DNA of 64,000 bases from the UHGV virus genome UHGV-1358930, one strand, 5' to 3'. Below the pieces are notes generated by a model that was not told where the DNA came from, did no database searches, and saw only the letters and a list, made by a program, of their open reading frames with translations. Every line of letters starts with the position of its first letter. Within the stretch, counting starts at the first letter, position 1. Below, in pieces: positions 2,447 to 64,000 of the stretch. The DNA comes from a virus. The position numbers and the translations under genes were made by a program.

Positions 2447-2522
2447 GCTGGTGTAGCTCAGTTGGTAGAGCAGCTGATTTGTAATCAGCAGGTCAGGGGT
2501 TCGAGTCCGTTCACCAGCTCCA
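2447..2522 (+). tRNA. tRNA-Thr (anticodon TGT)
   Basis: Acceptor gctggtg/caccagc. D-arm gctc-agttggta-gagc. Anticodon stem gctga/tcagc with loop TTTGTAA. T-loop TTCGAGT. CCA encoded. Confidence 0.85.
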
Positions 2523-3265: not shown

Positions 3266-3345
3266 CGTTCAATATAGTCCAATAGCTTATCACGGTAAAG
3301 CGCGTTTGTAAAACGACGAGTGGCTCGGTTCGAACCCGGCTTGGA
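3266..3345 (+). tRNA. degenerate tRNA-like element (anticodon loop TTGTAAA, GTA/Tyr-like); possible pseudogene
   Basis: 6-bp acceptor gtccaa/ttggac. Good D-stem gctt/aagc. T-loop TTCGAAC. Anticodon stem only about 3 bp. No CCA. Confidence 0.2.
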
Positions 3346-3629
3346 CATCCTATTAGACCCTTGCACGCCTCTCAACGATGCGTACCATGCGAGGGTCGAA
3401 ATTAAATAGTTTTCTTGCCGCATTTGGTACGAAGTATCAAAATATCCGCTGCCTGCGGTAATAGGTGATCTGAATATAGATCAAATTCAGATCAACGGCG
3501 TAGCATTTAACGGGCTTTAGCTACACTACACGGTAAGAGTTGAGAAAGCTGGTTGATGTATCGTGCAAACCTGCGGGTCCACGATCCACAGACGGTTCGC
3601 GATGACTGCTGTAAACGGAATCGCGTTTT

Positions 3630-3721
3630 GGGAATGTACTCAAGTGGTTGAAGAGACCAGTCCTGAAAACTGGGAGGTCGTTCATAGCGGCGCGAGCGTT
3701 CGAATCGCTCCATTCCCGCCA
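3630..3721 (+). tRNA. type II tRNA-Ser-like (anticodon TGA) with long variable arm; position 33 is C (atypical)
   Basis: Acceptor gggaatg/cattccc. D-arm ctc-aagtggttgaa-gag. Anticodon stem ccagt/actgg with loop CCTGAAA. About 20-nt variable arm. Perfect T-arm gagcg-TTCGAAT-cgctc. Discriminator G then CCA. Confidence 0.65.
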
Positions 3722-4276
3722 TCCCCGCTCGACGCAACGCGCCTGAGAATGAAACCGATGCAACTTTGGGAGCACGTCACACGGGCGGAAAAGCCGTGCG
3801 TTGCTAAACCTGCTCCAACGTAATGGAGGAAGTCGGAACGGCTAATCCGTCAAGAGCCGAAGAACTGGATCCTAAGCTCATATTCGATAACAACAGAAGC
3901 GTGTAGGTGGCAGCTCGGAAAGACGAGCAAATATAGGTCAGTACAGTGTAATTGGTATCACCCCGGACTGTAAATCCAGCTTGGCCTACTATAGAGATAG
4001 CGCTAAGACCAGCTATCACGGCGTTGAATCAGTGATCAGGTACAAGAAACGCTTAATCTCGAAGCGAAACAGAGTAGCTAAAAGAACTGTACGTTGCATA
4101 GTAGGCAACCAACCGAAATTGGCCGAACTGGCGTGTCGTGTAGCCATGCGACTTTAAATAACAACGGTGGCACCATTACATACAGATGCGCTGCGAGCAA
4201 AGTATGAGAAAGATTATCTTTCTTTTGTCGGTGGGCAGGTTTGAAGTTATCCTGTTGCAGATAAAACTTCAAACAC

Positions 4277-4350
4277 GCCGGTATAGTGTAGTGGTAACAC
4301 CCAATCCTTCCAAGATTGTATTGCGGATTCGAGTTCCGTTACCGGCTCCA
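4277..4350 (+). tRNA. tRNA-Gly (anticodon TCC), copy 1
   Basis: Acceptor gccggta/taccggc. D-stem gtgt/acac. Anticodon stem caatc/gattg with loop CTTCCAA. T-loop TTCGAGT. CCA encoded. Confidence 0.8.
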
Positions 4351-4460
4351 GCGCGAGAACGTCACTGACTAAGCGTAGCACAGTGCATGGATAGGAGGGA
4401 AGCTTCATGAGAAACGACGCGCACGCCTTCTAAGTCTTGAAAGGGGGGGGGACTTAGAAA

Positions 4461-4760
4461 ATGAGCAGAAGCTATAAGAAAACGCCGTGGTGCGGAGATA
4501 AGAAAGGCAAATGGAAAAAGCGCAGAGCTTCAAAGGTCGTGCGCGGATATCTCAGGCGCCATATCGAAGATCTGTTCCAAGATGCGCAATACAAGAAAAT
4601 CTACTGTTCACGGTACATATGCGACTACGGGTTCTTATATCCATGGGAAGAGCATTGGACGTATGTGCAGGAAGAGAATTCACATGTGCGTGCGAATGAG
4701 CCAAAACGTTCGAAAGAAGATGAGTACCGCCAGTGGTATCAAGAGTACAAAGCTAAATAA
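4461..4760 (+). CDS. hypothetical basic protein
   Basis: G-rich RBS before ATG at 4461. 99-aa Lys/Arg/Trp/Tyr-rich ORF. A hairpin gcgctct..agagcgc follows the stop codon. Confidence 0.35.
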   Translation: MSRSYKKTPWCGDKKGKWKKRRASKVVRGYLRRHIEDLFQDAQYKKIYCSRYICDYGFLYPWEEHWTYVQEENSHVRANEPKRSKEDEYRQWYQEYKAK

Positions 4761-4799
4761 CAATCGGTTATGCGCTCTCCGATAAAAGAGCGCACACGA

Positions 4800-4874
4800 T
4801 GGGCTATGGTGAAAAGGCAACACATCAGACTTTGACTCTGACATTTGTTGGTTCGAGTCCAACTAGCCCAGCCA
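4800..4874 (+). tRNA. tRNA-Gln (anticodon TTG), copy 2
   Basis: Acceptor tgggcta/tagccca. Anticodon stem tcaga/tctga with loop CTTTGAC. T-arm gttgg-TTCGAGT-ccaac. Discriminator G then CCA. Confidence 0.75.
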
Positions 4875-4949
4875 AGTAAAAAGAAGACGTTTTATCTCTC
4901 TTTATCTTTCTGTTTGTGGCATCAGTACAAACAAAATGCCACACAACAT

Positions 4950-5026
4950 GGGAATGTAGCTCAGTAGGTTAGAGCGCATGACTATAGGTCATGAGGTCGA
5001 AGGTTCAAGCCCTTCTGTTCCCTCCA
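4950..5026 (+). tRNA. tRNA of undetermined identity; anticodon loop CTATAGG gives a formal anticodon ATA (A34, highly unusual); Ile(TAT)-like, Tyr-decoding or a pseudo-tRNA are all possible
   Basis: Canonical cloverleaf: acceptor gggaatg/tgttccc, D-arm gctc-agtaggtta-gagc, anticodon stem catga/tcatg, T-arm gaagg-TTCAAGC-ccttc, CCA encoded. Confidence 0.6.
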
Positions 5027-5435
5027 AAGCCTATGTCAGTATAGGTCTTGAAATGATAAATAGACCAATACATTATCTTTCTAAAGATAATGTATCTGAT
5101 GAAAAGAGATCATCAACTCTCGGCGAAATATAACTGTTGTGACGAATGTGTCGCTTGACACAAAGAAGTAGCAGGTTCGTCGCTGCGCTTAATCTACTGA
5201 ACTGCAATGTTGATGTAAGCAGTGATAGAGGTTCCCAAACCCATTCAGGGAGATTAAGAAAAAGTTTGCTTATTTAGTAGAAAGAGGGTTGGAGGGGCAC
5301 AGCAAGTAGAATAAATGCAATAGGGCAACAAATTTGAAAGCTAATAAAGGATGTGCTAAGGAGCAGAAGTAACTACCTCTGTCTACTGTGTATTTCTACT
5401 AAATGAGTTTAACTTTTTATTAAGGAGCTTATAGT

Positions 5436-5648
5436 ATGAAAACATATACTTTTATTTGTTATGATAAGTATCCAAAAACAGTTAAAAAGTTCCACACTTT
5501 TAGAAAGCGATTTTCTTCGTTATCAGATATTGCTAAATTCTTAAAATCTTCAAATAAGCTCTATTTGCATGAGCCACTGAAACAGCTATCTAAAAACGAA
5601 TTAGCAATTCTGTCAAAGAAGCTCCGATCGTTAAATAACATCACATGA
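5436..5648 (+). CDS. hypothetical small protein
   Basis: AAGGAG RBS 7 nt upstream of ATG; 70-aa Lys-rich ORF. Confidence 0.4.
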   Translation: MKTYTFICYDKYPKTVKKFHTFRKRFSSLSDIAKFLKSSNKLYLHEPLKQLSKNELAILSKKLRSLNNIT

Positions 5649-5771
5649 AAAATCAAAATATTTATAAATAAGCTAGAAGGTTTTAATTAAATTTTATTTT
5701 TGACAATTATACTAAAATACTAAATTATCCGTATAATTGAACCTAATATAAATGTAGATAGGAGGTGATAC

Positions 5772-7028
5772 ATGATGAAAACATGGAAGCAAAATCTAAA
5801 ACATCTTACCGTCGATCAATACAATCTGTTAAGAGAATTATGTAGCTTGTCTAGAGCAGTATATAATGAAAGTTTGTATAATATTCGGCAGCATTATTTT
5901 GAAGAAGGTTCTTACTTGAGATATGAAGCAAACTACTATCTTGTAAAGAATTCTGATAATTACAAAAGATTAGGTGCAAATGTTGCTCAGCAATCTATGA
6001 AAGGAGCTGACGCATCCTTCAAATCCTTCTTCGGGTTACAGAAGCTCGCTAAATCCGGCAAGTATCAGGGCTGGAAAATACGAATGCCCAAATATTTGAA
6101 GAAAGATTCGTTTTTCAAAATAGTATTTAGTCAAGCGCAGATATCAGATGACAAATTTCGTGTTCCGGTTTCTTTTGATATGCGAAAAGATTACAAAGAA
6201 CCAATGTTCATAAAAATTCCTCCGCATATTATCGGCAAGAAAATAAGGCAGATTCATATTGTTCCTAAGTACAACGGTAGATACTTTGAAGTTAGATACA
6301 TGTTTGACGATATTGATGTAGAAAAGCCTGAAATCGATGCTACAAGAGCAATGGGAATAGACTTAGGTGTCAATAACTTAGCTACTTGTGTAACCGATAC
6401 AGGTGAGTCTTTCATAATTGATGGTAAGAAATTAAAATCAATAAATCAATGGTACAACAAAGAGTTGGCCAGACTGTCAAGTATTAAAGATAAGCAAAGT
6501 ATCAAAGGTTACACAAAACGCCAATACAACCTGACAACTAAGAGAAACAACAGAGTTAACAACTATATTTATTGTGCAGCTAAGAAAATAGTTAACTACT
6601 GTGTCAATAACAAAATTGGTAATATTGTTGTAGGGTATAATGATGGTTTTCAATCGAGATCCAACTTAGGAAAAGTAAATAACCAAAACTTCGTTATGAT
6701 TCCGTTAGGACGACTGAAGAGCAGACTTGAGTATCTTTGCAATCAACATGGAATCAATTTTGTACTTCAAGAAGAAAGTTACACTTCAAAAGCATCGTTC
6801 TTTGACGATGATAAAATGCCAAAATGGAATCCGCAGAATCCAGAAGAAGCAAAATTTTCGGGAAAACGCGTATACAGAGGATTATACATCACATCAAACA
6901 AAACCAAAATAAACGCAGATGTCAACGCAGCACTAAACATACTAAGAAAAAGTAACTTGACAGACCTAACCGTCTTACAAGCTAGAGGCGCAGTCAGCTC
7001 GCCTTCAAGATGCTATATAGCATCTTGA
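5772..7028 (+). CDS. tnpB: TnpB (IS200/IS605-family OrfB, RuvC-like RNA-guided nuclease family); no tnpA partner
   Basis: GGAGGTG RBS. 418 aa. C-terminal RuvC-III-like motif INADVNAALNILRKS. Overall TnpB architecture. Confidence 0.85.
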   Translation: MMKTWKQNLKHLTVDQYNLLRELCSLSRAVYNESLYNIRQHYFEEGSYLRYEANYYLVKNSDNYKRLGANVAQQSMKGADASFKSFFGLQKLAKSGKYQGWKIRMPKYLKKDSFFKIVFSQAQISDDKFRVPVSFDMRKDYKEPMFIKIPPHIIGKKIRQIHIVPKYNGRYFEVRYMFDDIDVEKPEIDATRAMGIDLGVNNLATCVTDTGESFIIDGKKLKSINQWYNKELARLSSIKDKQSIKGYTKRQYNLTTKRNNRVNNYIYCAAKKIVNYCVNNKIGNIVVGYNDGFQSRSNLGKVNNQNFVMIPLGRLKSRLEYLCNQHGINFVLQEESYTSKASFFDDDKMPKWNPQNPEEAKFSGKRVYRGLYITSNKTKINADVNAALNILRKSNLTDLTVLQARGAVSSPSRCYIAS

Positions 7029-7071
7029 TAAAGATTTTTTTAATGAATTTAATTGATTTATTTAAAATCTG

Positions 7072-7142
7072 CTGATGTAGCGCAGCTGTTAGAGCAACCG
7101 ACTTTAAGCAATGAGTCGTAGGTTGAAGTCTAGCAACCAGCT
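7072..7142 (+). other. tRNA-like remnant directly 3' of tnpB (D-arm-like tagcgcagctgttagagc, 5/7 acceptor pairing, aberrant 8-10 nt anticodon loop TTAAGCAATG)
   Basis: Partial cloverleaf only. Could be a disrupted tRNA, a tRNA-derived insertion target, or part of the TnpB-associated right-end RNA. Confidence 0.2.
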
Positions 7143-7153
7143 AGATTTGATAT

Positions 7154-7227
7154 GCGGATATAGTGTAACGGTAACATCCGACTCTTCCAAAGTCGTGTTG
7201 CGGGTTCGAGTCCCGTTATCCGCTCCA
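7154..7227 (+). tRNA. tRNA-Gly (anticodon TCC), copy 2
   Basis: Acceptor gcggata/tatccgc. Anticodon stem cgact/agtcg with loop CTTCCAA. T-arm gcggg-TTCGAGT-cccgt. CCA encoded. Confidence 0.8.
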
Positions 7228-7421
7228 AGAGGGAGTATGCACCCCGCTACCCATCTAGTATGTCGACTATCTGATGGCGCGAAATTTAACTGAAAAGAGC
7301 ATATATGCAAGCTTGTCGCATATGAGTACAAGTGTCGTAAAGTCAATACGATGTCTAACTATTTTGACAAAGGCAGAGAAGCTGCTATAATCGGGTGCAA
7401 AAACCATTCCCGATACAATAA

Positions 7422-7498
7422 GGGTCTTTAGCTCAGTTGGTCAGAGCATCCGGCTCATAACCGGACGGTCCAGGGTTCAAACCCCTGAAGACCCACCA
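7422..7498 (+). tRNA. tRNA-Met elongator-type (anticodon CAT; Ile2-lysidine identity cannot be excluded)
   Basis: Acceptor gggtctt/aagaccc with 1:72 paired. Anticodon stem tccgg/ccgga with loop CTCATAA. T-arm caggg-TTCAAAC-ccctg. Discriminator A then CCA. Confidence 0.9.
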
Positions 7499-7713
7499 CA
7501 ATTGGTACAACACGACTGTAACGACTCTCGCGGTTTAAAGTTGTATCCCACTTCTTGATTGAGGTGTGAAGTGTCAAGAGAGCTTCCGACGAGTCTTATG
7601 GGCACCACCTAGCGGTGAAAAGATAAGACAATCGTCATTAGATCTAAGTTGTCCGGCAGTGTTAATGTTATTGAATCATGGTGAAATTGTGATCACATCT
7701 GCCGGATACATAT

Positions 7714-7782
7714 CCTCCCGTAGTGTAGTGGTAGCACTAGCGTCCGTCAGGGCGAAGGATCCGTTCGAATCGGAAGGGAGGT
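7714..7782 (+). tRNA. tRNA-like, probably defective (GTC/Asp-like anticodon region but no proper 7-nt loop/5-bp stem; 4-bp T-stem; no CCA)
   Basis: Acceptor cctccc/gggagg. D-arm gtgt-agtggta-gcac identical in style to the Gly tRNAs. T-loop TTCGAAT. Confidence 0.3.
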
Positions 7783-7997
7783 TGTCTGGCACGGACAAAG
7801 TGCAGAACCTATCAAGAGGAATTCAGTGCCTGCCTCGCTTCGGATAGCAAAAGAAGGCGTTTGGTAGTAATCGACAAACTACTCGCGGTTACAGAGAGGG
7901 AGAGGCGTTACAGGTAAACCTCTTAGGTGCTATGATATCAGGCACTTAGCAAAGCACAGCTTGCAGTTAGGACTAATCCGACCAGATATCAAAATAT

Positions 7998-8071
7998 GCA
8001 GCTATAGTGTAATGGTAACACTCAACTCTTCCAAAGTTGTATTGCCGGTTCAAATCCGGTTAGCTGCTCCA
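7998..8071 (+). tRNA. tRNA-Gly (anticodon TCC), copy 3
   Basis: Acceptor gcagcta/tagctgc. Anticodon stem caact/agttg with loop CTTCCAA. T-arm gccgg-TTCAAAT-ccggt. CCA encoded. Confidence 0.8.
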
Positions 8072-34350: not shown

Positions 34351-34406
34351 AGAGAGTTTTGTATTCCTTTGAAACCCTCTCTGAAAATAAAAATAATAAG
34401 GAGAAG
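34351..34406 (+). ncRNA. candidate preQ1-I-type riboswitch-like leader (hairpin + A-rich tail + SD) upstream of queF
   Basis: agagag..ctctct 6-bp stem, then gaaaataaaaataataaggag with the SD in the tail; architecture only, no model scan possible. Confidence 0.3.
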
Positions 34407-34413
34407 TAAAAAA

Positions 34414-35925
34414 ATGCTAAAATCAAACAATGGAAGAACATCCGAAGACTTATCAGGAGTAACTCTACTTGGTAATAACAACACTGAGTACAACTACGAC
34501 TATACTCCAGAAGTTCTAGAAACATTTGTAAACAAGCATCCTGACAACGATTATGTTGTCACATTTGATGCTTATGAATTTACAAGCAAGTGTGTCACCG
34601 GAGACACTATGATAGATGTTGCATGTAATGAAACTGACAATCCGGATGGAATTCCAATCAAAGATTTGGTAGGTACAGAAGGATATGTGTTTTGTGTAGA
34701 TCCCACTACATTACAACCATTATGTAGGAAGTATCGAGATGTACGAAAGACTGGAGAAAGTGTACCTGTAGTTAAAGTACTCATGCAAAGTTTGAGAACA
34801 GATGGAAAGGGTAACACATACTATGAATCTTCTGAAATCAAGTGTACACCTGATCATATGATATTGGTGAAAAAAGGATTCCATGATAGCGAATGGGTGT
34901 GTGCAAAAGATCTCAAACCTGGCATGAGGTTGATTGCAAATCAAAGAAGTGGAGATGTAATACGATCTAAACTTCGACACAGACTTATTGGGGAAGCAAT
35001 TTTTGATGAAGATATTATGAATATTCATCATATAGACGGTAATCATTACAATAATGACCCATCTAATCTATCTAATTTATCTTCTCATGATCATCACCAT
35101 CTTCATAGATCTCAAGAATATGGATACGATAATTTAGATGTATCATACTTAGTTGATCTGTATAACTCCGGAGAAAACTTCAACTCCATAGCAAAGATGT
35201 TCAACTGTGATGTATCTACCATTGAATCTAGAATAGGTAATATAGTTGGAAGACGGACACAATCAGAGTCATTATCACTACGAAATAACTTGTTGAATAA
35301 AGAGCGGGATAGCGAAATCTGTGAATTGTACAACAAAGGATACTTGCTATCTGAAATTGCAGATTACTTAAATATCCACAGTACAACAGTGTTAGGAGCA
35401 CTAGAAAGACACGGCATCCCTCGCAGAGAATCGAACTTCTCTAGGTACAATCGAAAGAAATTGAACCTCCCACCATTGAATCATAAAGTACTAGCTGTAC
35501 TAGATGGTGGATATGAAGATGTGTACAACATGGAAGTAGAAGGAGTTGAAAACTATTTTGCCAATGAAGTGATAGTCCATAACTGCCCAAAAACGGGGCA
35601 GCCAGATTTTGCAAAAGTTGTAATTAGTTACATTCCTAATGAGAGAATGGTTGAAAGCAAGTCCCTAAAGCTTTACCTCTTTTCTTTCCGCAATCATGGA
35701 GATTTCCACGAAGACTGCATGAACATCATCATGAAGGATCTAATTCATCTTATGGATCCGAAGTACATTGAAGTAAAAGGTATTTTTTCTCCAAGAGGAG
35801 GTATCTCCATCTTTCCCTTTGTTAACTACGCGAATCCGAAATTTAATTATCAGGATTTTGCAAAGTCTCGAATGCTGGAGGCGCTTAGAGATTCGAGCAA
35901 TAGAACAGTAAGATACGATATGTGA
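34414..35925 (+). CDS. queF: NADPH-dependent 7-cyano-7-deazaguanine reductase QueF (YkvM type), interrupted by an intein (extein 172 aa)
   Basis: N-extein ends ..AYEFTSK, C-extein starts [18 protein letters not shown]..; spliced junction [14 protein letters not shown] matches the QueF catalytic motif E(F/Y)TSLCPxTGQPD. Confidence 0.8.
34591..35583 (+). mobile_element. intein (331 aa) within queF carrying an HNH endonuclease domain and two HTH modules; inserted immediately before the QueF catalytic Cys, which serves as +1 residue
   Basis: Block [11 protein letters not shown] at the start; terminal VIVHN followed by extein Cys; HNH core [23 protein letters not shown]. Confidence 0.75.
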
Positions 35926-49302: not shown

Positions 49303-49879
49303 TTGTATATATACACCATATTGTACATACAAACAATGCGACTTAGCTTGTCCTAATAGAGCTGAAGTGAATTGTTGGTTCAAACGATGCCGACTTGATA
49401 TGTCAAATAATTGCTTGCATACTAATATCCGAAATATTGAGAAAGCCGAGGATCTACTAAGTAACAAGTATGGAGAAACTGTGTGGTTTCCCACAGATAA
49501 TCCTTCAGATGCAAGCGACACTATTTGCTACGTAGCTATTTGCAAATATGGTAAAGGTACTGCTCTTGGAAACGGAATATACAATCTGGATTTTGCAAAA
49601 TTTATAGATATGATCAAGGAGTCCTGGAATACGCATTTTGAAACAGATAACTTAATTCAGATGCGTGTGTGGTCTTTGTCTGCAAATTACCTAGTTATCT
49701 CAAATCTAGATTATGTTAGATTTCAAGATTTTGAAAGTCAAACGTTGCTAAGGCTTCTGAATGATCGAAGAGATTATACAAAGACAACTGTAGTAGTTAC
49801 TAGTAAAGAACCTTTGGTCGGCAGCGGAAATTTCTTTCCTAGATTGACTTCTTTGCTAAAGGGGGTCAAGAGCAATTGA
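49295..49879 (+). CDS. hypothetical protein, Cys-rich N-terminus (possible helicase-associated factor)
   Basis: 194 aa immediately upstream of the helicase gene; function not inferable from sequence alone. Confidence 0.45.
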   Translation: MHDCIYTPYCTYKQCDLACPNRAEVNCWFKRCRLDMSNNCLHTNIRNIEKAEDLLSNKYGETVWFPTDNPSDASDTICYVAICKYGKGTALGNGIYNLDFAKFIDMIKESWNTHFETDNLIQMRVWSLSANYLVISNLDYVRFQDFESQTLLRLLNDRRDYTKTTVVVTSKEPLVGSGNFFPRLTSLLKGVKSN

Positions 49880-52299
49880 CGAATTCAGTAGAACTTCAAG
49901 TTATTTGTAAAATTTTAACAAGTCAAGATGATTCTGAAATTGATAGGCTGTGTGCGTTTGATGAATCCTATTACGCAGTATTCAAAGATCAGATCAAATT
50001 TATTCTAGATCATAGAGAAAAATATCATACTGTCCCAGACTTGTTTACGTTCCAAGCTCAATTCGAAGACATTGTTTTGATTGATGTAAACGAATCTGCA
50101 GATTTTTTAGTAGACGGACTTCGGAAAAACAAGCAGCAGATCATACTCTTACAAACATTCAATAAGCTATCTGAGTTAGGTTCTGCAGACGTTTCTGAAG
50201 CTTGGCAGTTCTTACAATCCCAATGCGACAAAGCTGCTCAACTTGATAATTCTAACCCGATGGATATCATCAAAGAAGCTCACAAGCGAAGTGATCAAGT
50301 TTTATCGCTAAGTAATCAAACAAGAATTCCTACAGGATTCAAAGAAGTAGATGAAACAATGTATGGAGGATTGTCAACTGTTGAAGAACTTTGTCTTGTA
50401 GTTGCTAGAACTAACACAGGTAAAGCTCAGCCTCTTTGGAGTAATATCTTAACACCTACTGGGTGGAAGCGTATGCGAGATATTCAAGTAGGAGACATTG
50501 TATGCGGTAGAGATAATGACAATGGTAAAGTAGTTCAAATATTTCCGCAAGGTACAATTGACTACTATCGTGTAAAGTTTGATGATGGTACTTATACGGA
50601 GTGTTCTGCAGATCATCTTTGGGAAGTTCTGGATAGTGAACGAAGGAAGCATGATAGAAAAACTTATGGTCAGTATCTTACATTGACTACTCGAGATATT
50701 CGGAATCATATGTATCGCAGATACTCTGTTGATATGTGTGAACAAATTGAATTCGAGAGTGCTTTTGATACAGATAGTGAACTTGACGGATATTTTTTAG
50801 GAGCATTTATCGGGCATGGTAGAAATGTAGGTAACAAGCTATATATTCATTCTCTGTCCGATGTTTCAAAGCGACGTATAATTGATGCATTGTCTAAATA
50901 TCGTTGTCAATTCACAGAAAATGATCCAAATACACTCGTGATTGAGGATAAGAATGATGGTAAGCTTATCCAAAAGATGTTCGAGTACAACTTGATGAAC
51001 TGCAAAGTCATTGATAGACATATTCCGGATATATATTTTCATAGCCCTGTAAATGTTAGAAAAGCTCTGTTATCAGGTCTCTGCGATACAGATAGCACAA
51101 TGTTATCAAAAAATCATAGAGGTTGGGTTTTCGTTACATCTTCAGATCAGCTTAAATCTGATTTTGTTTACATTGCTAGATCTTTAGGTGTAAAAGCAAA
51201 GGTGTCGACTGCAAGATCTGGTAGATGGGTTGACTTAGGTGTATCGCACGTTGCGAATACGTACCACAGGGTTATGTGTATCTCAAAATTCAATCCGTTT
51301 TATGGTTCACCAAATTACACAGAATTTGAACGCAGACAGGATAAAACTAAATTTAAAAATCGCAAGCGTGTTTGCAAATTCATTGATTCTATTGAATACG
51401 TAGGTAAGACGGAATGCCAGTGTATCATGGTAGACAATAAGACGCATACATATATTACAGATGATTTTATTGTCACACATAACACCTGGGTTACTACTAA
51501 GATGATGGAGTCTGCACAAGCGAATGGATTTCCTGTACTATATTATAGCCCAGAGATGCAATCTGCTTTCATTGGCACACGATTTGATACCTGGAGAGGT
51601 CACTTCCGAAATAGCGATATTCAACGAGGTAAATACAGCGAAGACTACATTCAGTACATCAAAGACATTGTTAAAGAGGAAACTGGTGCATTTGTTGCAG
51701 AAGACAAAGATATGCCAGGAGGAAAAACAACTGTCAGGTCGATTGAAACTCTAGTCAAGCGACATCATATAAAGCTTGTTATCATTGATGGTCTGTCTTA
51801 TATGGCAGATACAGAAAAGTCTGATAGCGATGTTATTAAGTATAAAAATATATGTACTGGACTATTCCGAATGTCTAAAACATATGGATGTGCTGTAGTA
51901 GTATCTGTACAAGCTAATAGAGACACTAAATCTAATGTCGATGACAAAGGAGTCCCGTGGCCTGATATGTATTCGATTGAAGGCTCAGACCATCCAGGAC
52001 GTATTGCAACTCAAGTATTTGCGCTTCGACAATTGTACGAAGAGCATACATTAGAGATAAAGCTGTTGAAGACTAGAAATGCAAAGAATGCAAATCCTAC
52101 GTTCGCATATGTATGGGATCCAAATACAGGAAACACAGAGTTTGTTTCGGATGATGCATCGGCTGCTCCTCCTTCTGCTCCTGCACAGCCTAGCAAGTTC
52201 TCAACGCCGACAGTGTCAGCAAAGATTGTACACACCGATATAGATGATAATCTAATCGATGCCAGTACAGATGACGATCTAGATGACGTTGAGTTTTGA
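49876..52299 (+). CDS. DnaB-like replicative helicase (T4 gp41-like), interrupted by an intein in the P-loop
   Basis: Exteins join as ..LVVARTNTGK|TWVTTKMMESAQANG (Walker A GxxxxGKT). C-terminal RecA-like motifs: Walker B LVIIDGLSYM, SVQANRD. Confidence 0.8.
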   Translation: MTNSVELQVICKILTSQDDSEIDRLCAFDESYYAVFKDQIKFILDHREKYHTVPDLFTFQAQFEDIVLIDVNESADFLVDGLRKNKQQIILLQTFNKLSELGSADVSEAWQFLQSQCDKAAQLDNSNPMDIIKEAHKRSDQVLSLSNQTRIPTGFKEVDETMYGGLSTVEELCLVVARTNTGKAQPLWSNILTPTGWKRMRDIQVGDIVCGRDNDNGKVVQIFPQGTIDYYRVKFDDGTYTECSADHLWEVLDSERRKHDRKTYGQYLTLTTRDIRNHMYRRYSVDMCEQIEFESAFDTDSELDGYFLGAFIGHGRNVGNKLYIHSLSDVSKRRIIDALSKYRCQFTENDPNTLVIEDKNDGKLIQKMFEYNLMNCKVIDRHIPDIYFHSPVNVRKALLSGLCDTDSTMLSKNHRGWVFVTSSDQLKSDFVYIARSLGVKAKVSTARSGRWVDLGVSHVANTYHRVMCISKFNPFYGSPNYTEFERRQDKTKFKNRKRVCKFIDSIEYVGKTECQCIMVDNKTHTYITDDFIVTHNTWVTTKMMESAQANGFPVLYYSPEMQSAFIGTRFDTWRGHFRNSDIQRGKYSEDYIQYIKDIVKEETGAFVAEDKDMPGGKTTVRSIETLVKRHHIKLVIIDGLSYMADTEKSDSDVIKYKNICTGLFRMSKTYGCAVVVSVQANRDTKSNVDDKGVPWPDMYSIEGSDHPGRIATQVFALRQLYEEHTLEIKLLKTRNAKNANPTFAYVWDPNTGNTEFVSDDASAAPPSAPAQPSKFSTPTVSAKIVHTDIDDNLIDASTDDDLDDVEF
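50425..51483 (+). mobile_element. intein (353 aa) with LAGLIDADG homing endonuclease; class-3-like (Ala1, WCT motif)
   Basis: Starts AQPLWSNILTPTGW; ends FIVTHN|T. Block B ..ADHLW, block F ECQCIMV, block G Thr-His-Asn. LAGLIDADG motifs LDGYFLGAFIGHG and LLSGLCDTDS. Confidence 0.65.
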
Positions 52300-52514: not shown

Positions 52515-53651
52515 TTAGGAGAAAGCTATTCTCAAGCCCTCGTTCAATATATTCTTTGATGCATTGATATCTCTATCATGTGTTGTTTGACAATTAGGAC
52601 AAGTCCAATTTCTAACTTCAAGATTTTTGACTTCTGGATTTTTGAATCCGCAACAGCTACAAGTTTGAGAAGACGGAAAGAAGGCGTCTATTTTGACAAG
52701 TTGTTTTCCATACCAGCTGCACTTGTAAGTCAATAGTTCAACGAATTTTGACCAGCTTGCGTCTGAAATTGCTCTTGCTAGTTTATGATTCTTGACCATA
52801 TTTTTGACTTTCAAGTCTTCAACACAGATTATGTCGTGGTTTTTGACAAATTCTGTTGACAGCTTGTGCAAGAAATCATTTCGTTGATTTGAAACTTTCT
52901 CAAATTGTTTAGCAAGTCTGATTCTTGATTTGTTTCTGTTATTAGATCCTTTTTGCTTCTTCGAGAGCTGTCTTTGAAGTCTTCTTAACTTCTTAGTAGA
53001 CTTTGAAAGGTATTTCGGATTTTTGATCTTTTCACCGTCTGAAGTTATTGCGAAATCTTTGATGCCGAGGTCAATTCCTACAACAGATCCAGTTTTGTCA
53101 AACTCTTCAATTTCAACATCTTTGCAACAGATACTTGCAAAATATTTTCCTGAAGCTGTTTTTGAGATGGTTGCCGAAAGCGGAGTTCCTTTGACATTTA
53201 AATTTCCTTTGAATTTAACCCATTTCAATTTAGGCAAGAAGATCTTGTTATCTAAACAATGAAATTGTGCAGGTGTGGAGTATGTAGCCTTATATGACTG
53301 TCTACTTGAAAGTTTCTTCTTAAATTTAGGATAACCTGGTTGCTTTCCATTCTTTACGTTTCTAAAGAAGTTTTGATACGCAGTATCAAGATCTCTAAGA
53401 GACGATTGCAAAGCCATTGCTTCAGGTTCTTTCAACCATGAATATTCGTCAAGCTTCTTGAGCTTTGTTAAATCTGCAGAATTTTGATTATATGTATTTG
53501 ACTTTCTTGCCTCTTCATAATCTTTGATGGATTTAGCAAGATAGTAGTTGTAGACAAATCTGCAGCAGCCAAAGGTTTTTGCAATTTGCTCAATCTGCTG
53601 CTTGTTCGGATATATCCGTATTTTATAAGCTTTCAGAATCATTTTGGTCAT
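52515..53651 (-). CDS. tnpB: TnpB (IS607/IS605-family OrfB, RuvC-like nuclease with C-terminal zinc finger)
   Basis: N-terminus [23 protein letters not shown]; zinc finger [24 protein letters not shown]. Confidence 0.85.
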
Positions 53652-54243
53652 CTGAAAGTGCCTCCTTGATTTTAGCTACGCTTCTCTTAGAATACATTTT
53701 CATTGAGTAACAGTGCAGTAAACTTACGATTTCTTCAAAAATTTCTTCAGAATCAAGTTTTTCGGATCCTAGTTGGGACGCAACAACTATCTCTGTTCCA
53801 AATTTTCTAAAAAGATGATAAAATAGATCAAATCCTACTCTAGACAGTCTGTCTTTATAATTGATAACTACTTTCTCAACTTTATATTCCAATACATCGT
53901 CTAATAGTTCAAAAAACTGTTTTCTGTTTTCAAAAGAAATTCCGGAAGCAACCTCTTGAAAAACACCATCGACTTGAATTCCGGAATTCATGCAAAAACT
54001 GTTCAAAGATTCAAGTTGGTTCGCTAGATCCGATTTTTGAGATATTGTAGAAACTCTAGCGTAGATATAATTTTTTCTTGTTTGACCGTTATTTAATATA
54101 GAGTAGACGTCTTTATCATGATAGATGCGCTTACCTGTAGGTGTTAAGTCATAATGAATGAGTCCTCTTTTGCAATAATGACCAAGTGTTGGCTGTGAAA
54201 TATTCAATAGTTGTAACACTTGTTTAGCTTTCATATTGATCAC
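53623..54243 (-). CDS. tnpA: IS607-type transposase TnpA (small serine recombinase with N-terminal MerR-like HTH)
   Basis: [26 protein letters not shown]; catalytic serine motif [14 protein letters not shown]; 29-nt overlap with tnpB. Confidence 0.85.
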
Positions 54244-54295: not shown

Positions 54296-55303
54296 ATGCT
54301 ATATATGAATATTGATACCATAATTGATAAACTTTCATCTCAAGGGTTTATACGCCTAAATAGGCATATAGGCGACTACTATAGCTGCTATTGCCCATTT
54401 CACAGTGATGGAAAAGAGAAAAAGCCGTCCTCTGGTATATTGCTAAGAGACCAGTATCGCAATGGACAGCACTATCCTGCTGGATTCTTTAACTGTTTCA
54501 CTTGTCACCATGCATATCAACTGGAAGAGTTCATCACAGAGCTATTGAAAGTTAATTCTATCCACATGTCTGGTAGAGATTGGCTCATCAAGAATGATCC
54601 AGATTATGATCCAGATACAGAATTTGAATATCTCTTACCTAGAGATATGATGCAGTCTGTCGTGAATTCTTTTGCATTAAAGCAGATATCTAGTAAGTCG
54701 GGAGTTCAAAAACCTTCATTCATATCTGAGTCAGAACTTTCTAAGTATAGATACACAGTACAGTATATGTATGACCGAAAACTTACAGACACTGTGATCG
54801 ACTTATTTGACGTAGGGTTTGATGCTAATTTCGTTCCAGCAGGAAGAAAGAAATCAGTTCCATGCGTCACATTCCCGGTAAGAGATGTCCACGGAAATAC
54901 GCTGTTCATCTGCAGACGATCGATTGAAGGAAAATCATTCTATCTACCGTCAAACATAGAAAAATCTGTATATGGGCTGTATGAATTACCTCAAGGATGT
55001 AAATCTGTTATCATCGCGGAAAGCTGCTTCAATGTTCTAACTTCTTACGTTTACGGTGTACCTGCTGTAGGTCTACTAGGTACTGGTACTCCTCATCAGA
55101 TTTCTCAGCTTAGAAGTTTAGGTGTAAATGAGTTTGTATTAGGATTAGATCCAGATGAAGCAGGAGATAGAGCTTGCAAGCGATTGAAACGAGCACTCGG
55201 CGATATTGCTATTATCCGACGCATGAATGGAATACCTGAAGGAAAAGATATAAATGACCTCACCAAGTCTGAATTTTTAGACATATACAGAAGTAGAATG
55301 TGA
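54296..55303 (+). CDS. DnaG-like DNA primase (zinc-binding + TOPRIM)
   Basis: Zinc finger CYCPFH..CFTCHH; TOPRIM VIIAESCFN ... LGLDPDEAG. Confidence 0.8.
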   Translation: MLYMNIDTIIDKLSSQGFIRLNRHIGDYYSCYCPFHSDGKEKKPSSGILLRDQYRNGQHYPAGFFNCFTCHHAYQLEEFITELLKVNSIHMSGRDWLIKNDPDYDPDTEFEYLLPRDMMQSVVNSFALKQISSKSGVQKPSFISESELSKYRYTVQYMYDRKLTDTVIDLFDVGFDANFVPAGRKKSVPCVTFPVRDVHGNTLFICRRSIEGKSFYLPSNIEKSVYGLYELPQGCKSVIIAESCFNVLTSYVYGVPAVGLLGTGTPHQISQLRSLGVNEFVLGLDPDEAGDRACKRLKRALGDIAIIRRMNGIPEGKDINDLTKSEFLDIYRSRM

Positions 55304-59207: not shown

Positions 59208-60476
59208 TTGAGTTTATTTACCAAGTCACAAATGGCGAAATTCAATGAAGTTGCCGAACGAAGCAAACAGCTTAACAAAGAAAAACCAAAGTCTGTAAAT
59301 GTATCTACAGTAAATGCGGAATTGAAGTCGATGTCAGATTCTGTGCTAGAATACTTCAAAGACTCCCCTGCTATCTGCATTCGAACCGCTGATCAGCTAC
59401 ATGAATACATTGATAAATGTATCGAAGCTGGATACGCTGGTATAGATACAGAAACAACGGGACTAGACAGACAAAGAGATTACATTGTAGGCGCGTCTTT
59501 ATATTATCCGGATGGTACAGAATGTTATATTCCGATGAAACATAAGATCCCTATTTTCGAAACTCCTTACAAAAATCAACTGTCTTATGAAGAAGTAACT
59601 AAAGAATTCAAACGACTAGAAAACAGCAACATACGACTCATTTTTGCAAATGCTGACTTCGACTTAGCAATGATCTACAAGGATCTAAAAGTTGATTTCA
59701 ACGATAGATTCTATTATGATGTTATTCTTGCATGGCGTTGTTTGAAGGAGAATGAGTTACACAATGACTTGAAATTCCTTTACAATAAATATGTATTGAA
59801 AGGAAAAGGAGATCCTAAACGTTTTAGCGATTTCTTTTCTGTAAAGCTGTTCCCATATTCTGATCCTGAAATCGCTAAATTGTACGCAGCAAACGACGCA
59901 AAAATCACATTTCAACTGTTCAAGTGGCAGCTTCCTTATGTTACAGAAAGTCATCCTAAGTGTCAGAAAGCTCACCTAGAAGCAATATCTAGACTCATTT
60001 GGAACATAGAGTTTCCACTGGTTAAAGTCTGCCAGAATATGTATAGAAGAGGTTCATACATTGATTCTAATGTTGCTAGTGTTTTGAAAAAGCGATACAG
60101 AGATGAATACAATGTAGAAGTCAAAAAGCTACAAGACATGGTACAAAAAATCATTGATAATACGAATATAGCATATTCAGGTAAACGTCCATTTACTAGA
60201 GGAGCAGATTTCAACCCATCTTCACCTCCTCAAGTTAAATATTTGATATACAATCTACTTCAAATTCCTAAAGGATCGTCTTCTGGAACAGGTAAAGAAG
60301 TATTGAACGAACTTAATCTGCCTGTAACAAATCAGATACTGAAGGTAAGATCTCTATCTGTACTTATCAATACATTCGTAGAGAAGCTACCAGCTGCCGC
60401 AAGTCTGGATCATAGAATTCATGGTCAGTTCAAGCAGGTGGGTGCAGCCACGGGCAGGTTGTCTTGTGCCGAGCCT
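59208..60476 (+). CDS. family A DNA polymerase, exon 1 (3'-5' exonuclease domain and start of the polymerase domain; TTG start)
   Basis: Exo I motif GIDTETTGL; ends at ..KQVGAATGRLSCAEP (PolA motif TGRLSSxxPNLQNIP), then out-of-frame sequence and a stop. Confidence 0.75.
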
Positions 60477-61382
60477 AAACATGATAAATCAGATTGGGCT
60501 CGTAAAATCGAGTTAATTCAGGGAAGGGTAGCAGCTTGACGCTGTGAGATAACCCTGAGCCAAGGCTCTCATATATCTACTTAGGAGGTACACGATATGA
60601 GAAAGATTCAATTCAATGAAGAGACCATCAATGCAATTAAAAATTTTATAGAGTCTGGTCACACAATGGAAGAGACATGTAACAGATTTACGCTCAAATA
60701 CGATACATTGAAACGTGTAATGTTTGAGAACAATCTGAAGCCGTATAGAGCAGATAAATCACATCCCGTTATCTTCACTAGAGATGAGGAAAACATCGTA
60801 TGTAAGCTATATTCGACAACTTCAATGACAATGAAAGATATCTGTAAAGAAGTGAAGCTACCTGATTACGCTGTGCAGAAAATACTATCGGATAATTTTT
60901 CTGAAAAATACAGAAATGAAAGGAAAGCAAAGCTTTATAGATTGTCCAAACGGTGCGAGAATAGTCCGTGGTTTCAGAAATACGGAGCAGACTCTTCTCA
61001 GTGGGTCGGAGGCGTTGTAGACGATGGCAACGGATATGATATGATCAAAAAACCTGAGTGGTACACAGGTAGAAAGTGTTCTGATTATGTCTTTTTACAT
61101 ACAGTTGTGATGTGTGAGCACTTAGGTCTAACTGAACTTCCTAAAGGATATGTAGTACATCATATCGACGGAAACAAGAAAAATAACACAATAGATAATT
61201 TAGCGTTGATGACCGTGTCAGGACACAGTAAGTTACATTTGTTGATGAAGAATCTATGCAAGGTGCAGAGACTATCCGAACAGGAGTAAGCGAAAGCTGA
61301 AATGCTAGACAATGGTTGTGTATGACATCTATCATTCCTACTAGTTATACAAGCCATCGAAGATATAGTCCACAAATAATTG
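60477..61382 (+). mobile_element. putative group I intron 1 in the DNA polymerase gene (encodes HNH endonuclease)
   Basis: Exon 1 ends after U (cct|); the intron ends in G immediately before exon-2 codon AAC; free-standing ORF with its own RBS inside. Confidence 0.6.
60597..61289 (+). CDS. intron-encoded HNH homing endonuclease
   Basis: TAGGAGG RBS; HNH core VVHHIDGNKKNNTIDNLALMTVSGHSKLH. Confidence 0.8.
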   Translation: MRKIQFNEETINAIKNFIESGHTMEETCNRFTLKYDTLKRVMFENNLKPYRADKSHPVIFTRDEENIVCKLYSTTSMTMKDICKEVKLPDYAVQKILSDNFSEKYRNERKAKLYRLSKRCENSPWFQKYGADSSQWVGGVVDDGNGYDMIKKPEWYTGRKCSDYVFLHTVVMCEHLGLTELPKGYVVHHIDGNKKNNTIDNLALMTVSGHSKLHLLMKNLCKVQRLSEQE

Positions 61383-61450
61383 AACCTGATGAATATCCCG
61401 TCGCATGCGGTTGATATTCGACATATGTTCAGAGCAACTCCCCAGAAAGA
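61383..61450 (+). CDS. DNA polymerase exon 2 (3' boundary uncertain)
   Basis: Begins NLMNIPSHAVDIRHMFRA, completing the PolA motif P-NLQNIP..IR.aF; the downstream read-through does not match the expected DYSQIELR region. Confidence 0.5.
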
Positions 61451-62848
61451 TTACACAGTTGAATCAGAAGTAGATGACAATAACGAAGTATCATTCGTTA
61501 TTGATAATGGACATGAATTACAAACATCTGAAGGATATAAGCCAGTAGTAGATATTGTTCCCGGAGATGTTGTAATGTTTGATGATAAGGAGGTATCAAG
61601 CTTAATTGTCAAAGAAGTTGAAACTAAAGGTACGTCAACCCGAGTACGTTTTGATGTCATCTGACTACAGTTTACGAAAGTTGGCTGTAGTAAAACCTTG
61701 TTAAGTCGATGAATACTTGATAGATAATTCTATAACCTAAATACAAGAATTGGTTCGACTATCAAGTTAATATCGAGCAAAATAGGACCTTTTATCTTGT
61801 TGAGTATAGTCTCTTAAAAATTGGAGGTATTCGACATGATAATATATAAAATATACAATGATGTTAATTCTAAGCTTTACATCGGTCAAACAACAAAATC
61901 GCTTGAAGAAAGAATAAATGGGCATCATTCTTCTATGATAGGAGGGCAAGATACTCATCTATATCGAGCAATGCGAAAATACGGATGGGAAAAGTTTCAT
62001 TTTGAAATAATATCCAGAGCTGATAGTCAAGATGAATTAAATTATCTTGAAGAGTATTATATCCGTAAGTTAGATACAATAAGAAATGGATATAACATGG
62101 CTCCAGGAGGATCAAAAAATGTTATGTACTCATCTATCGTAGCAGCTAAACATGATGCTAAAATGAGAACAGATTCTGTAAGAAAGAAAATATCAGAATC
62201 AATGAAAAAGTCTTATGCTTCACGCGGTGGTCCCTCAGAAGAACACAGGAAGCATCTTTCACAAGCCAAGAAGGAATATTATCAAACTCCTGAAAGCGAA
62301 TTGACACGAGAAAGGTTTAGAAAGTCATTCAAGCTATCTCCTGAGCATTATAAGGCACTGAATGACGCGAAAAACAAAAGTGTATATTGCATAAATGAAT
62401 CTAATGAAGTAGTTGCAAAATTTGATAGGGTCAAAGATGCAGCTATTTGGTGGATGTCTACTGGGTACAAAGTTAAACATTATGATCAACTTTGTGACAA
62501 AATAAAAGAGTCCAGCAAGCAAAATAGATTCATAAAGGGGCTAAAATGGTTCTATTGTGTGTAGAGACTATCGAAAGCTAGAAATTGACATTCAGAGAAA
62601 TCTGTAAATGATTTTAGGTAAATCAGGTCAGTTGAGATAACCAAGTGAGTAGAGTACAGCTCAAGTGAGTTAGCATCTGCATGATATTAGTGTAGAGTAA
62701 GCCTATTGAATGGAAATTCAAGGGTTCATTTGAATTGGTGATAGATTCAAATGTTCAAGAGATAGTCCGGCACTCTTGGTGACAAGAGAAATGTTTAACG
62801 AACATTCAACTAATTAAGCAGCAAGAACCAAAAATTTGCGCATACGTA
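61451..62848 (+). mobile_element. putative group I intron 2 (encodes GIY-YIG endonuclease); boundaries approximate
   Basis: Non-coding flanks around a free-standing GIY-YIG ORF; exon 3 resumes at about 62849 after an in-frame stop. Confidence 0.4.
61821..62564 (+). CDS. GIY-YIG homing endonuclease
   Basis: YKIYNDVNSKLYIGQTT GIY-YIG motif; TGGAGG RBS. Confidence 0.8.
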   Translation: MEVFDMIIYKIYNDVNSKLYIGQTTKSLEERINGHHSSMIGGQDTHLYRAMRKYGWEKFHFEIISRADSQDELNYLEEYYIRKLDTIRNGYNMAPGGSKNVMYSSIVAAKHDAKMRTDSVRKKISESMKKSYASRGGPSEEHRKHLSQAKKEYYQTPESELTRERFRKSFKLSPEHYKALNDAKNKSVYCINESNEVVAKFDRVKDAAIWWMSTGYKVKHYDQLCDKIKESSKQNRFIKGLKWFYCV

Positions 62849-63025
62849 GGTAACATCAAAGAACTTTGCGAAGGTTTTGCAAACGGGAAAGATGCTTACG
62901 CGATGATCGCAGCTGTTTCTTTCAATAAGTCATATGAAGAATGCTTAGAGTTTCACCCTGTTACGCATGAGTATCAGCCTGAAGGTAAAGCAAGAAGAAC
63001 AGAATCGAAGTCCGTACTTTTGGGT
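62849..63025 (+). CDS. DNA polymerase exon 3 (boundaries approximate)
   Basis: GNIKELCEGFANGKDAYAMIAAVSF..RRTESKSV aligns with the PolA region NLIEAFRRGLDIHTKTAMDIF..RRQAKAVNFG; the frame then diverges and stops at 63067. Confidence 0.5.
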
Positions 63026-64000
63026 GAACGTAAAAGTTATGCCCCATATTTCAAGTTCTCGCATTAAATTTGCTTGAAATATGAAAATCTTGTGAACTAC
63101 ATTGCTCATAGGTGTTGAGAACACGATTAGGATATACAGGAAATGGTATATAGGTTCTCAGCTAACTGGGGATACTCAAAAGAGTGAATCCAGTGCCAAG
63201 CATCAAGTCTTCACGGAGTTCTATACCTTACATCATATCGGAGGTGTAGAACTTGAACAATTATTCATCATACATCATAACTTGTAAGGACAATGGAATG
63301 CAATACATCGGAATAACTTCTATTGGTTTAAGAAATAGGTGGTATGCACATGTTTCATGTTCTCGAAATTTAAGTAGTAATAATCCAATGTATAAGGATA
63401 TGAAAGAATTTGGAGAATCCTCTTTTGAAATACATGAAATTGAATCTGGGTTATCAAAAGAAGAAGCCGATGCGCGTGAAAAGGAACTAATAAAGATTTA
63501 TAATACAAAGTGGCCTAACGGATACAACTTAACAGACGGTGGATTCAAGAATGATGGACAGTTATTACCAGAAGGTCGATCGGCTAGAATATCTTGTAAG
63601 CTACGCGGAGTTCCTAAATCAAGCGAGCATAGATTGCATCTAAGTCAGTCTAGGATTGGAAAATACAAAGGAGCAGACAACGCCTTCTATGGTAAACATC
63701 ATTCTGATGAAACTATATTGAATCTTCAGAAGCTATTATCCCACGGAAAGGTTTATCAGTTAGACAAAAAATCTAAATTAGTTGTAGGCACATTTGATAG
63801 CGCAGCGTTTGCAGCAAGATACATATCTGAAAACAAATTATCTTCTGCAAAAATAGATACTATAAATGCTAGATTATGCGAAGTTATGAACAATGATAAT
63901 CGTTCCGCATACGGTTTTATGTGGAGACGCGATGAAGGTCAATCGACTAAGTATTAGAAGAGAAAATAGAGCTACTCTTCGAAGCGCAAGACATTAAGCG
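63026..64000 (+). mobile_element. putative group I intron 3 (encodes GIY-YIG endonuclease); runs to the window end
   Basis: Polymerase homology is lost after ..SVLLG; free-standing GIY-YIG ORF follows. Confidence 0.35.
63253..63957 (+). CDS. GIY-YIG homing endonuclease
   Basis: YIITCKDNGMQYIGITS..RWYAH GIY-YIG motif; GGAGG RBS. Confidence 0.8.
   Translation: MNNYSSYIITCKDNGMQYIGITSIGLRNRWYAHVSCSRNLSSNNPMYKDMKEFGESSFEIHEIESGLSKEEADAREKELIKIYNTKWPNGYNLTDGGFKNDGQLLPEGRSARISCKLRGVPKSSEHRLHLSQSRIGKYKGADNAFYGKHHSDETILNLQKLLSHGKVYQLDKKSKLVVGTFDSAAFAARYISENKLSSAKIDTINARLCEVMNNDNRSAYGFMWRRDEGQSTKY

Follow-up and report, generated by a model that had tools for sequence, protein, structure and literature searches.

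In the 64,000-nucleotide stretch of the virus genome UHGV-1358930 that was analysed here (the window), the gene of a replicative helicase of the DnaB family is interrupted in its P-loop by an in-frame insert of 353 amino acids. This insert is very probably a bifunctional class 3 intein, placed at the GK/T point of the Walker A motif (the DnaB-b site; a slash marks a splice junction throughout), and it would keep the helicase of this uncultured phage of about 160 kb inactive until it is spliced out. The precursor gene (49876..52299, + strand) has a TTG start and 807 codons plus a stop, and is the sole long open reading frame (ORF) across the region. Its N-extein of 183 amino acids (49876..50424, +) ends with VVARTNTGK, the first part of the Walker A motif, with Lys as residue -1. 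The intein (50425..51483, +) runs from Ala1 to Asn353 and consists of a Hedgehog/intein (HINT) splicing domain into which a LAGLIDADG domain is inserted, and the C-extein of 271 amino acids plus the stop (51484..52299, +) supplies the remainder of the RecA-like helicase core, followed by an acidic tail. Codon 184, which directly follows the Gly-Lys codons GGT AAA, is GCT (Ala) at 50425..50427; codon 536, AAC (Asn), lies at 51481..51483 and precedes ACC (Thr). The 1059 nt of the insert contain neither a stop codon nor a frameshift. The junctions read ARTNTGK/AQPLWSNILTPTGW...ECQCIMVDNKTHTYITDDFIVTHN/TWVTTKMMESA. An original prediction, which was made from the letters of the DNA, had described a Walker A motif split between GK and T, and this can be read directly from the gene as ARTNTGK/A...THN/T.

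The boundaries were confirmed by comparison with the closest intein-free gene (L005:3118-4491), the exteins of which are 70% identical to the window gene at the nucleotide level. The DNA alignment has one long gap that covers exactly 50425..51483, as the predicted coordinates and length required, and the intein-free site reads ...ACTAATTCCGGAAAG/AGCTGGGTTTGC.... When the 454-amino-acid protein obtained by in silico splicing was used as the query in a search for orthologs, 1,136 homologs were found, of which the best 120 were inspected. Sixty-three of these are intein-free proteins of about 450 amino acids with an uninterrupted ARTNSGK/SWVCTKMME, and 57 carry an intein at the same point, GK followed by S or T, that starts with AQPLW and ends with VTHN; mini-inteins of 175 amino acids account for 54 of the latter. 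Pfam assigned DnaB_C and AAA_25 to the flanks and Hom_end and LAGLIDADG_3 to the insert, and in NCBIfam the phage_DnaB and DnaB models matched the helicase, with intein_Cterm at 14.4-14.6 bits, just under its cut-off of 15.6. In silico splicing raised the DnaB_C score from 48 to 68 bits, the match being now contiguous across the P-loop (profile positions 2-240), and the spliced 'vartntgktwv' was aligned by phmmer with the P-loop of E. coli DnaB, 'aarpsmgkttf'; the proposed DnaB/gp41-like identity of the host protein agrees well with both results. The insertion site is the DnaB-b or 'classic' P-loop site, i.e., Lys followed by Ser or Thr in the Walker A motif of a DnaB-family ATPase. Kelley et al. 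named the Lys/Thr position the 'classic' P-loop intein insertion (PMC5050341), and site b, with its +1 Ser that acts both as Mg ligand and as splicing nucleophile, is described for the mycobacterial inteins (PMC6195587). In the window gene, the Thr+1 of the intein is also the Walker A Thr. The G+C content is 36.5% in the intein, 38.5% in the exteins and 37.6% in the window, with no sign of recent acquisition.

Class 3 inteins are recognised by a non-nucleophilic residue 1, a Trp at B:12, a Cys at F:4, a Thr at G:5 and a Ser or Thr (rarely a Cys) at +1 (Tori et al. 2010, PMC2807308; Tori & Perler 2016, PMC5222942), and their mechanistic hallmark is an obligate block F Cys that makes the first attack (PMC2807308, PMC5222942). 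Each of these residues and all four splicing blocks were found in the insert. Block A (AQPLWSNILTPTGW; 50425..50466, +) opens with Ala1, which is not a nucleophile, and block B (GTYTECSADHLWEV; 50587..50628, +) contains the run His64-Leu65-Trp66, with His64 at B:10 (50614..50616) and Trp66 at B:12 (50620..50622). Block F (ECQCIMVDNKTHTYIT; 51412..51459, +) holds Cys333 at F:4 (51421..51423), the predicted first nucleophile, and block G (DFIVTHN/T; 51463..51486, +) comprises Thr351 (G:5), His352 (G:6), Asn353 (G:7) and Thr+1 (G:8; 51484..51486). A MAFFT alignment with the Bethlehem prototype, in which the roles of the residues were established biochemically (PMC2807308), placed His64 and Trp66 on His65 and Trp67, Cys333 on Cys320, and Thr351-His352-Asn353 on Thr339-His340-Asn341. 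The spacing in block F also equals that of Bethlehem (Asp at Cys+4, His at Cys+8, an aromatic residue at Cys+10), and Cys333 was additionally aligned with Cys124 of MchDnaB1. The lack of an N-terminal nucleophile, the Trp of ADHLW, the C-terminal Thr-His-Asn and the resulting WCT signature (Trp66, Cys333, Thr351) had all been predicted, and the block alignment that was proposed as a check put them in register with the prototype. The prediction for block F, a Cys in ECQCIMV, needed refinement: the motif is present and contains two cysteines that form a CxC pair, Cys331 (51415..51417, +) and Cys333, and the F:4 cysteine is the second one, as shown by its alignment with Cys320 of Bethlehem, the equal spacing and its invariance in all 144 relatives that were compared.

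This residue census covered the 144 full-length domains among the best 150 representatives, with the endonuclease positions counted in 145. To assess the family itself, 1.84 billion cluster representatives were scanned exhaustively by HMMER with the intein. The scan returned 14,692 relatives at E<=1e-3, 8,920 at E<=1e-10 and 1,095 at E<=1e-30; the best homolog had E=7e-94, which excludes chance. His64 was found in 144 of the 144 relatives and Trp66 and Thr351 in 143 each. Residue 1 was Ala in 101, another non-nucleophile in 32, Ser in nine and Cys in two, residue +1 was Thr in 114, Ser in 28 and Cys in two, and GK stood directly before the intein in 109. A tblastn search of isolated phages yielded 851 records with full-length relatives that are about 30% identical, the host proteins being terminases, SNF2/DarB-like helicases, DnaB and primase-helicases. 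This kind of element is very common and already recognised, and the window copy is a typical member. Three of the homologs deserve a separate mention (P0009, P0010 and P0015): two lie outside P-loops, in a CHAP-domain protein (VEGN/AQPLW...THN/T) and in a PD-(D/E)xK/Cas4-like protein, and one P-loop copy seemingly starts with Ser (AGK/SNVCSS...) with Trp, Cys and Thr retained, and is in this respect similar to the 'WCT inteins with Ser1' that Tori et al. discussed.

Assignment of the insert to class 3 is thus supported by every criterion that can be applied to a sequence. The class 2 inteins of the KlbA type combine Ala1 with the absence of the WCT triplet (PMC2807308), and here the triplet is complete and the +1 residue is Thr. 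Ala1 is common to the KlbA inteins, and inteins with the class 3 signature could in principle use either path as long as Cys F:4 has not been mutated (Tori & Perler 2016, PMC5222942), so a KlbA-like route, in which Thr+1 would attack the N-terminal junction directly and Cys333 would be structural or assisting, has to be weighed. We consider this route quite improbable, as the complete triplet is joined by a Cys333 that is conserved without exception and by a Thr at +1, which is poorly suited to attacking an amide bond directly.

The AlphaFold2 model of the intein, which was built from an 18-sequence alignment, had a mean predicted local distance difference test score of 89.3 and a predicted template modelling (TM) score of 0.89. 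Over the whole length, Foldseek matched it in the PDB to PI-SceI, the Tli and Pho VMA inteins and PI-PfuI, with query-normalised TM scores up to 0.74. Sub-domain matches were obtained with the class 3 DnaB inteins 6BS8 and 6RIX (splicing domain), gp41-1, I-DmoI and the hedgehog HINT domain 1AT0, and the model together with these matches supports a HINT fold. As modelled, the element is a two-domain, PI-SceI-like bifunctional intein. In the PDB sequence searches the best matches were MchDnaB1 (6RIX/6RIY), Msm DnaBi1 (6BS8) and gp41-1, and the family profile gave them at E of about 1e-20, which is stronger than the single sequence did. The suggested comparison with known helicase P-loop inteins was therefore borne out, since MchDnaB1 and Msm DnaBi1 occupy the same site.

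With the Walker A motif split, the 807-amino-acid precursor would presumably have neither ATPase nor helicase activity until it is spliced. In the proposed path, the thiol of Cys333 would attack the Lys(-1)-Ala1 bond, aided by His64, Trp66 and Thr351, and form a thioester-branched intermediate; the N-extein would then be passed to Thr+1 by transesterification. Cyclisation of Asn353, assisted by His352, would free the intein, and an O-to-N acyl shift would produce the Lys-Thr bond of a 454-amino-acid helicase with a whole GKT P-loop, in which the same Thr would serve as a Mg-ATP ligand. These four steps are established for homologous inteins, and we infer them here by homology. Two points weigh against the proposed path. 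Splicing, the requirement for Cys333 and the branched intermediate are all carried over to this protein from its relatives, and Beyer et al. found that WCT residues grafted onto a class 1 intein were insufficient for splicing (PMC7664689), so that the signature alone is no proof of splicing competence.

An insert that no longer splices would make the helicase gene a pseudogene, or the precursor would have to work unspliced. Splicing is predicted here from the sequence, and a class 3-like intein, Arsp-FB24 Arth_1007, is described as a pseudogene (PMC3196547). The catalytic residues of the window intein are all intact and invariant, the HINT domain and the exteins are under strong purifying selection, and the allele is widely distributed among near-complete phage contigs. 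A scan of part of the window ORFs revealed no second DnaB-family ORF. The geometry of the Walker A motif is such that a long insert between Lys and Thr, here of 353 amino acids, is incompatible with a working P-loop. The RadA intein is cited as a precedent (PMC6195587). Taken with these observations, the loss of splicing seems extremely unlikely.

Indirect support for splicing comes from the purifying selection and from the wide spread of the allele in an essential gene. The exact 807-amino-acid protein is present on metagenomic phage contigs of 108-162 kb, and its 90%-identity cluster has 143 members on contigs of 34-162 kb from many samples, from which it follows that phages with the intein allele are evidently viable; 15 of the 15 members listed have 807 amino acids and the intein. 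In more distant orthologs, with an extein identity of 52-72%, several allele types occur at the same site: no intein, a 175-amino-acid mini-intein, which is the commonest form and is found on contigs of about 140-145 kb, intermediates of 152-218 amino acids with endonuclease remnants, and a full intein with a canonical endonuclease (GDG, DKFIP and DTDG in P0136; P0003 and P0004 likewise). The deletions of the mini-inteins are confined to the endonuclease region, 50756..51352. The identity of the HINT domain to the orthologous inteins is 57-78%, no lower than that of the exteins (52-66%), which would fit long residence and selection for splicing.

Within the cluster, the fraction of variable sites in the 15 members was 1.5% in the C-extein, 2.6% in the C-terminal HINT part, 6% in the N-extein, 14% in the N-terminal HINT part and 25% in the endonuclease, with all of the splicing residues invariant in 15 of 15. 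The ratio of non-synonymous to synonymous substitution rates (dN/dS), calculated according to Nei-Gojobori for four DNA sequences (the window, L008, L009 and L010), was 0.03-0.07 for the exteins, 0.06-0.09 for HINT and 0.11-0.29 for the endonuclease; the constraint on the splicing domain is thus of about the same strength as that on the essential helicase. For the endonuclease, neutrality was rejected (P<=3e-4) in the three window pairs tested. The neutral decay of this variable domain was considered and dropped, as the dN/dS values contradict free drift: the domain is relaxed yet not freely drifting. The dS of the intein in the comparisons of the window with L008-L010 was 0.12-0.47 versus 0.08-0.15 in the exteins, up to 2-5 times higher in some pairs (Fisher P down to 8e-10). 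We do not regard this as proof of horizontal exchange, as the dS of the neighbouring primase is similar in some pairs, and the elevation may reflect ordinary phage mosaicism rather than an exchange of intein alleles.

The LAGLIDADG domain (approximately residues 116-315; 50770..51369, +) is the stretch that is deleted in the mini-inteins. The original prediction of a LAGLIDADG endonuclease with two motifs stands as far as the domain is concerned, which is real in both sequence and fold (Pfam Hom_end above its cut-off and LAGLIDADG_3, a profile alignment with PI-SceI, and fold matches to PI-SceI and I-DmoI). It also stands for motif 2 (LLSGLCDTDS; 51067..51096, +), in which the catalytic Asp223 is retained and Ser224 replaces a near-invariant Gly. 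Motif 1 (YFLGAFIGHG; 50791..50820, +) is degenerate, with His131 (50815..50817) at the catalytic acidic position, where 129 of the 145 relatives have Asp or Glu, and the term endonuclease fits the domain by name and not necessarily by activity, one of the two catalytic acidic residues being lost. Arg198 (51016..51018, +) occupies the position of the active-site lysine of block D. The active site was mapped using a family profile aligned to PI-SceI residues 207-454, which was needed because the endonuclease domain by itself, used as one query sequence, gave no useful matches in the PDB; the Bethlehem row of this profile was cut two codons off register, which leaves the PI-SceI correspondences unaffected. 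His131 is equivalent to Asp218 of PI-SceI, Arg198 to Lys301, Asp223 to Asp326 and Ser224 to Gly327. In the 145 relatives, the position of His131 is Asp in 127, Glu in two, Asn in 11 and His in none, that of Arg198 is Lys in 139 and Arg in five, Asp223 is Asp in 141 and the position of Ser224 is Gly in 141; an intact Asp/Glu-Lys-Asp/Glu triad is present in 123. Two features expected of an active enzyme, an acidic residue at the penultimate position of both motifs (PMC3384342) and the active-site Lys, are consequently missing from the window copy. In PI-SceI, substitutions of Asp218 and of Lys301 reportedly abolish cleavage, as is said to have been found by Gimble & Stephens in 1995 and Christ et al. 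in 1999.

On balance, these replacements make it somewhat probable that cleavage has been lost or reduced. The domain is probably kept mainly for the sake of correct folding, which is needed to splice the intein out of the essential helicase; its fold would be retained because a misfolded insert of 200 amino acids would jeopardise the splicing of an essential protein. In the proposed scheme, the endonuclease domain would be a vestige or the engine of homing, with the intein fixed in this lineage. The loss of cleavage is called into question by dN/dS values far below neutrality, which weaken it, and by the fixation of His131, Arg198 and Ser224 in 15 of 15 cluster members, a pattern that would also fit a working non-canonical site or a new function. 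A domain that still works as a double-strand endonuclease or nickase is a possible, if doubtful, explanation. His131 would then bind the metal or act as the general base, with Arg198 standing in for the lysine, and the intein would be mobile directly or via nicking-induced recombination. Besides the purifying selection, it would account for replacements that are fixed rather than scattered and for a catalytic Asp223 that is kept in 14 of the 15 members, and the dS of the intein, which is 2-4 times that of the exteins in some pairs, could reflect an exchange of intein alleles. This explanation has to contend with the acidic residue of the LAGLIDADG motifs, which is described as essential for catalysis (PMC3384342), with the complete absence of His at this position in the relatives, and with one cluster member that has D223G. 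It also has to contend with the 25% of variable sites in the domain compared to 1.5-6% in the exteins, and with the fact that all 15 listed of the 143 cluster members carry the intein, which implies that there are no nearby empty targets.

Two further cysteines of the splicing domain were noted in addition to Cys333. Cys60 (block B:6; 50602..50604) is Cys in 113 of 145 relatives, and Cys331 is Cys in 52 or 53 of about 145 and Ala in another third. By analogy with Msm DnaBi1, the set Cys331/Cys333/Cys60 could permit disulfide or zinc control of splicing. The redox switch of Msm DnaBi1 is a Cys48-Cys118 disulfide, and the candidate partner cysteines of the window intein, Cys331 and Cys60, differ from these. 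A bolder proposal, which we regard as unlikely, is that the endonuclease is no decaying relic and has been repurposed under selection (as a His/Arg nickase, an enzyme with another metal, or for DNA binding or regulation) and that, together with the Cys331-x-Cys333/Cys60 arrangement, the intein would make the maturation of the helicase conditional on the redox or metal state of the host, much as Msm DnaBi1 is controlled by a disulfide and zinc.

Comparison with known inteins places the element, as a probable class 3 intein, between several well-described systems. The Bethlehem prototype, 'MP-Be DnaB', was recovered from the genome of the phage as a 341-amino-acid intein in the large terminase gp11 (QDQ/PLALNTEV...ILTHN/T), in agreement with the published Gln-1, Pro1 and Asn341 (PMC2807308) and the TerL1-c site (PMC5050341). 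Both it and the window intein (341 and 353 amino acids) are full-length and bifunctional with a LAGLIDADG domain, share H-x-W, Cys F:4 and T-H-N/T in one register, and are phage-borne within an ATPase domain. They differ in that the overall identity is about 23%, residue 1 is Pro in Bethlehem and Ala in the window, and the Bethlehem intein lies in a poorly conserved TerL helix and not in a P-loop; moreover, its endonuclease was shown to cut (PMC5050341), whereas that of the window is without one catalytic Asp. Bethlehem gp52 was considered as the prototype and rejected, as the intein there is another one, of class 1, and interrupts a phosphoesterase. The translation of gp52 (L001:7578-9296, -), which is annotated as a phosphoesterase, holds a class 1-looking intein (region HDC/SW...HLTGN/S), and the 'DnaB-like' gp62 of the same record is an intein-free protein of 273 amino acids.

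The mycobacterial DnaB-b inteins, i.e., Msm DnaBi1 (6BS8), Mle DnaB and MchDnaB1 (6RIX/6RIY), resemble the window intein in their DnaB host, the insertion after GK and before S or T, Ala1, the WCT triplet and the terminal His-Asn; the N-extein of the mycobacterial DnaB-b site reads ...SVGK (PMC7664689). They are mini-inteins of about 139-145 amino acids without an endonuclease, are found in bacterial chromosomes and have Ser+1, in contrast to the LAGLIDADG domain of 200 amino acids, the Thr+1 and the phage helicase, distant from bacterial DnaB, of the window. PI-SceI (yeast VMA1), the archaeal VMA inteins and PI-PfuI likewise combine a HINT domain with a LAGLIDADG endonuclease placed inside it and are the best whole-model fold matches, but they are class 1 (Cys1, Cys+1), have the canonical Asp218/Lys301/Asp326, are about 15% identical, and reside in V-ATPase or other proteins. 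The gp41-1 intein (6QAZ; WCT-grafted 6RIZ) is close in the N-terminal half of HINT (E=6.7e-7 for the native form), has the same THN end and comes from a phage helicase of the DnaB/gp41 type (metagenomic, cyanophage-like). It differs in being a class 1, naturally split mini-intein with Cys1, and its WCT graft did not splice (PMC7664689).

With regard to the phage itself, a megablast of the 45-56 kb part of the window against isolated phages gave no match, and even the closest helicases from isolated phages share only about 30% identity. Because these come from Bacillus, Clostridium and Streptococcus phages, a host among the Bacillota is possible, which is a weak indication. Other mobile elements were also observed in the window. 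An IS607-like unit (52515..54243, -) lies between the helicase and the primase (Toprim; 54296..55303) and consists of TnpB (52515..53651, -; HTH_OrfB_IS605, OrfB_IS605 and a Cas12f1-like TNB) and an overlapping TnpA of the serine-recombinase/MerR type (53623..54243, -). The 162-kb contig L002 has this unit, and L005, L006 and the closely related L008-L010 lack it; without it, the primase sits within about 80 nt after the helicase. A QueF-like gene (34369..35925, +) contains a second intein of 331 amino acids (approximately 34591..35583; TSK/...EVIVHN/CPKTGQPDF), which looks to be class 1 from its Cys1 and Cys+1. It matches Pfam Intein_splicing, its inserted region matches an HNH endonuclease (PHROGs) and HTH_38/HTH_7, not LAGLIDADG, and its +1 Cys opens the conserved QueF segment CPxTGQPD.

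Further downstream, the DNA polymerase I gene is seemingly interrupted (59208..63957, +). The first ORF (59208..60539, +) encodes the 3'-5' exonuclease and the start of DNA_pol_A and stops within ...ATGRLSCAEP, and the polymerase continues in frame (...NLMNIPSH...) at 61380..61661 (+). An HNH_3 ORF (60597..61289, +) lies between these parts and two GIY-YIG ORFs (61821..62564 and 63253..63957, +) lie downstream of them. This arrangement looks like that of polymerase genes split by introns or homing endonucleases; no Rfam group I intron was detected in the region, whether the gathering threshold or E<=0.1 was applied. Eight tRNA genes form an array (1869..8068, +) in which a second TnpB-like ORF (5772..7028; OrfB_IS605 and TNB) is embedded, and a marginal match to the abiF RNA (3359..3395) scored 38.3 bits there against a gathering score of 37.

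Class 3 inteins, the WCT signature, the preference for the Walker A GK/T point and the abundance of these elements in phage helicases and terminases have been known since 2010. What is new and mildly unexpected is the detail of a non-canonical endonuclease site (His131/Arg198/Ser224) that is under purifying selection. For genome annotation, it is worth mentioning that pipelines should give the mature helicase as 454 amino acids. The occurrence, at a single site, of alleles without an intein, with a full-length or intermediate intein and with a mini-intein gives a clean natural series for the cycle of homing and decay and supports the proposal that phages are a reservoir of DnaB-b class 3 inteins, and an endonuclease that is non-canonical yet selected bears on the persistence of intein endonucleases after fixation.

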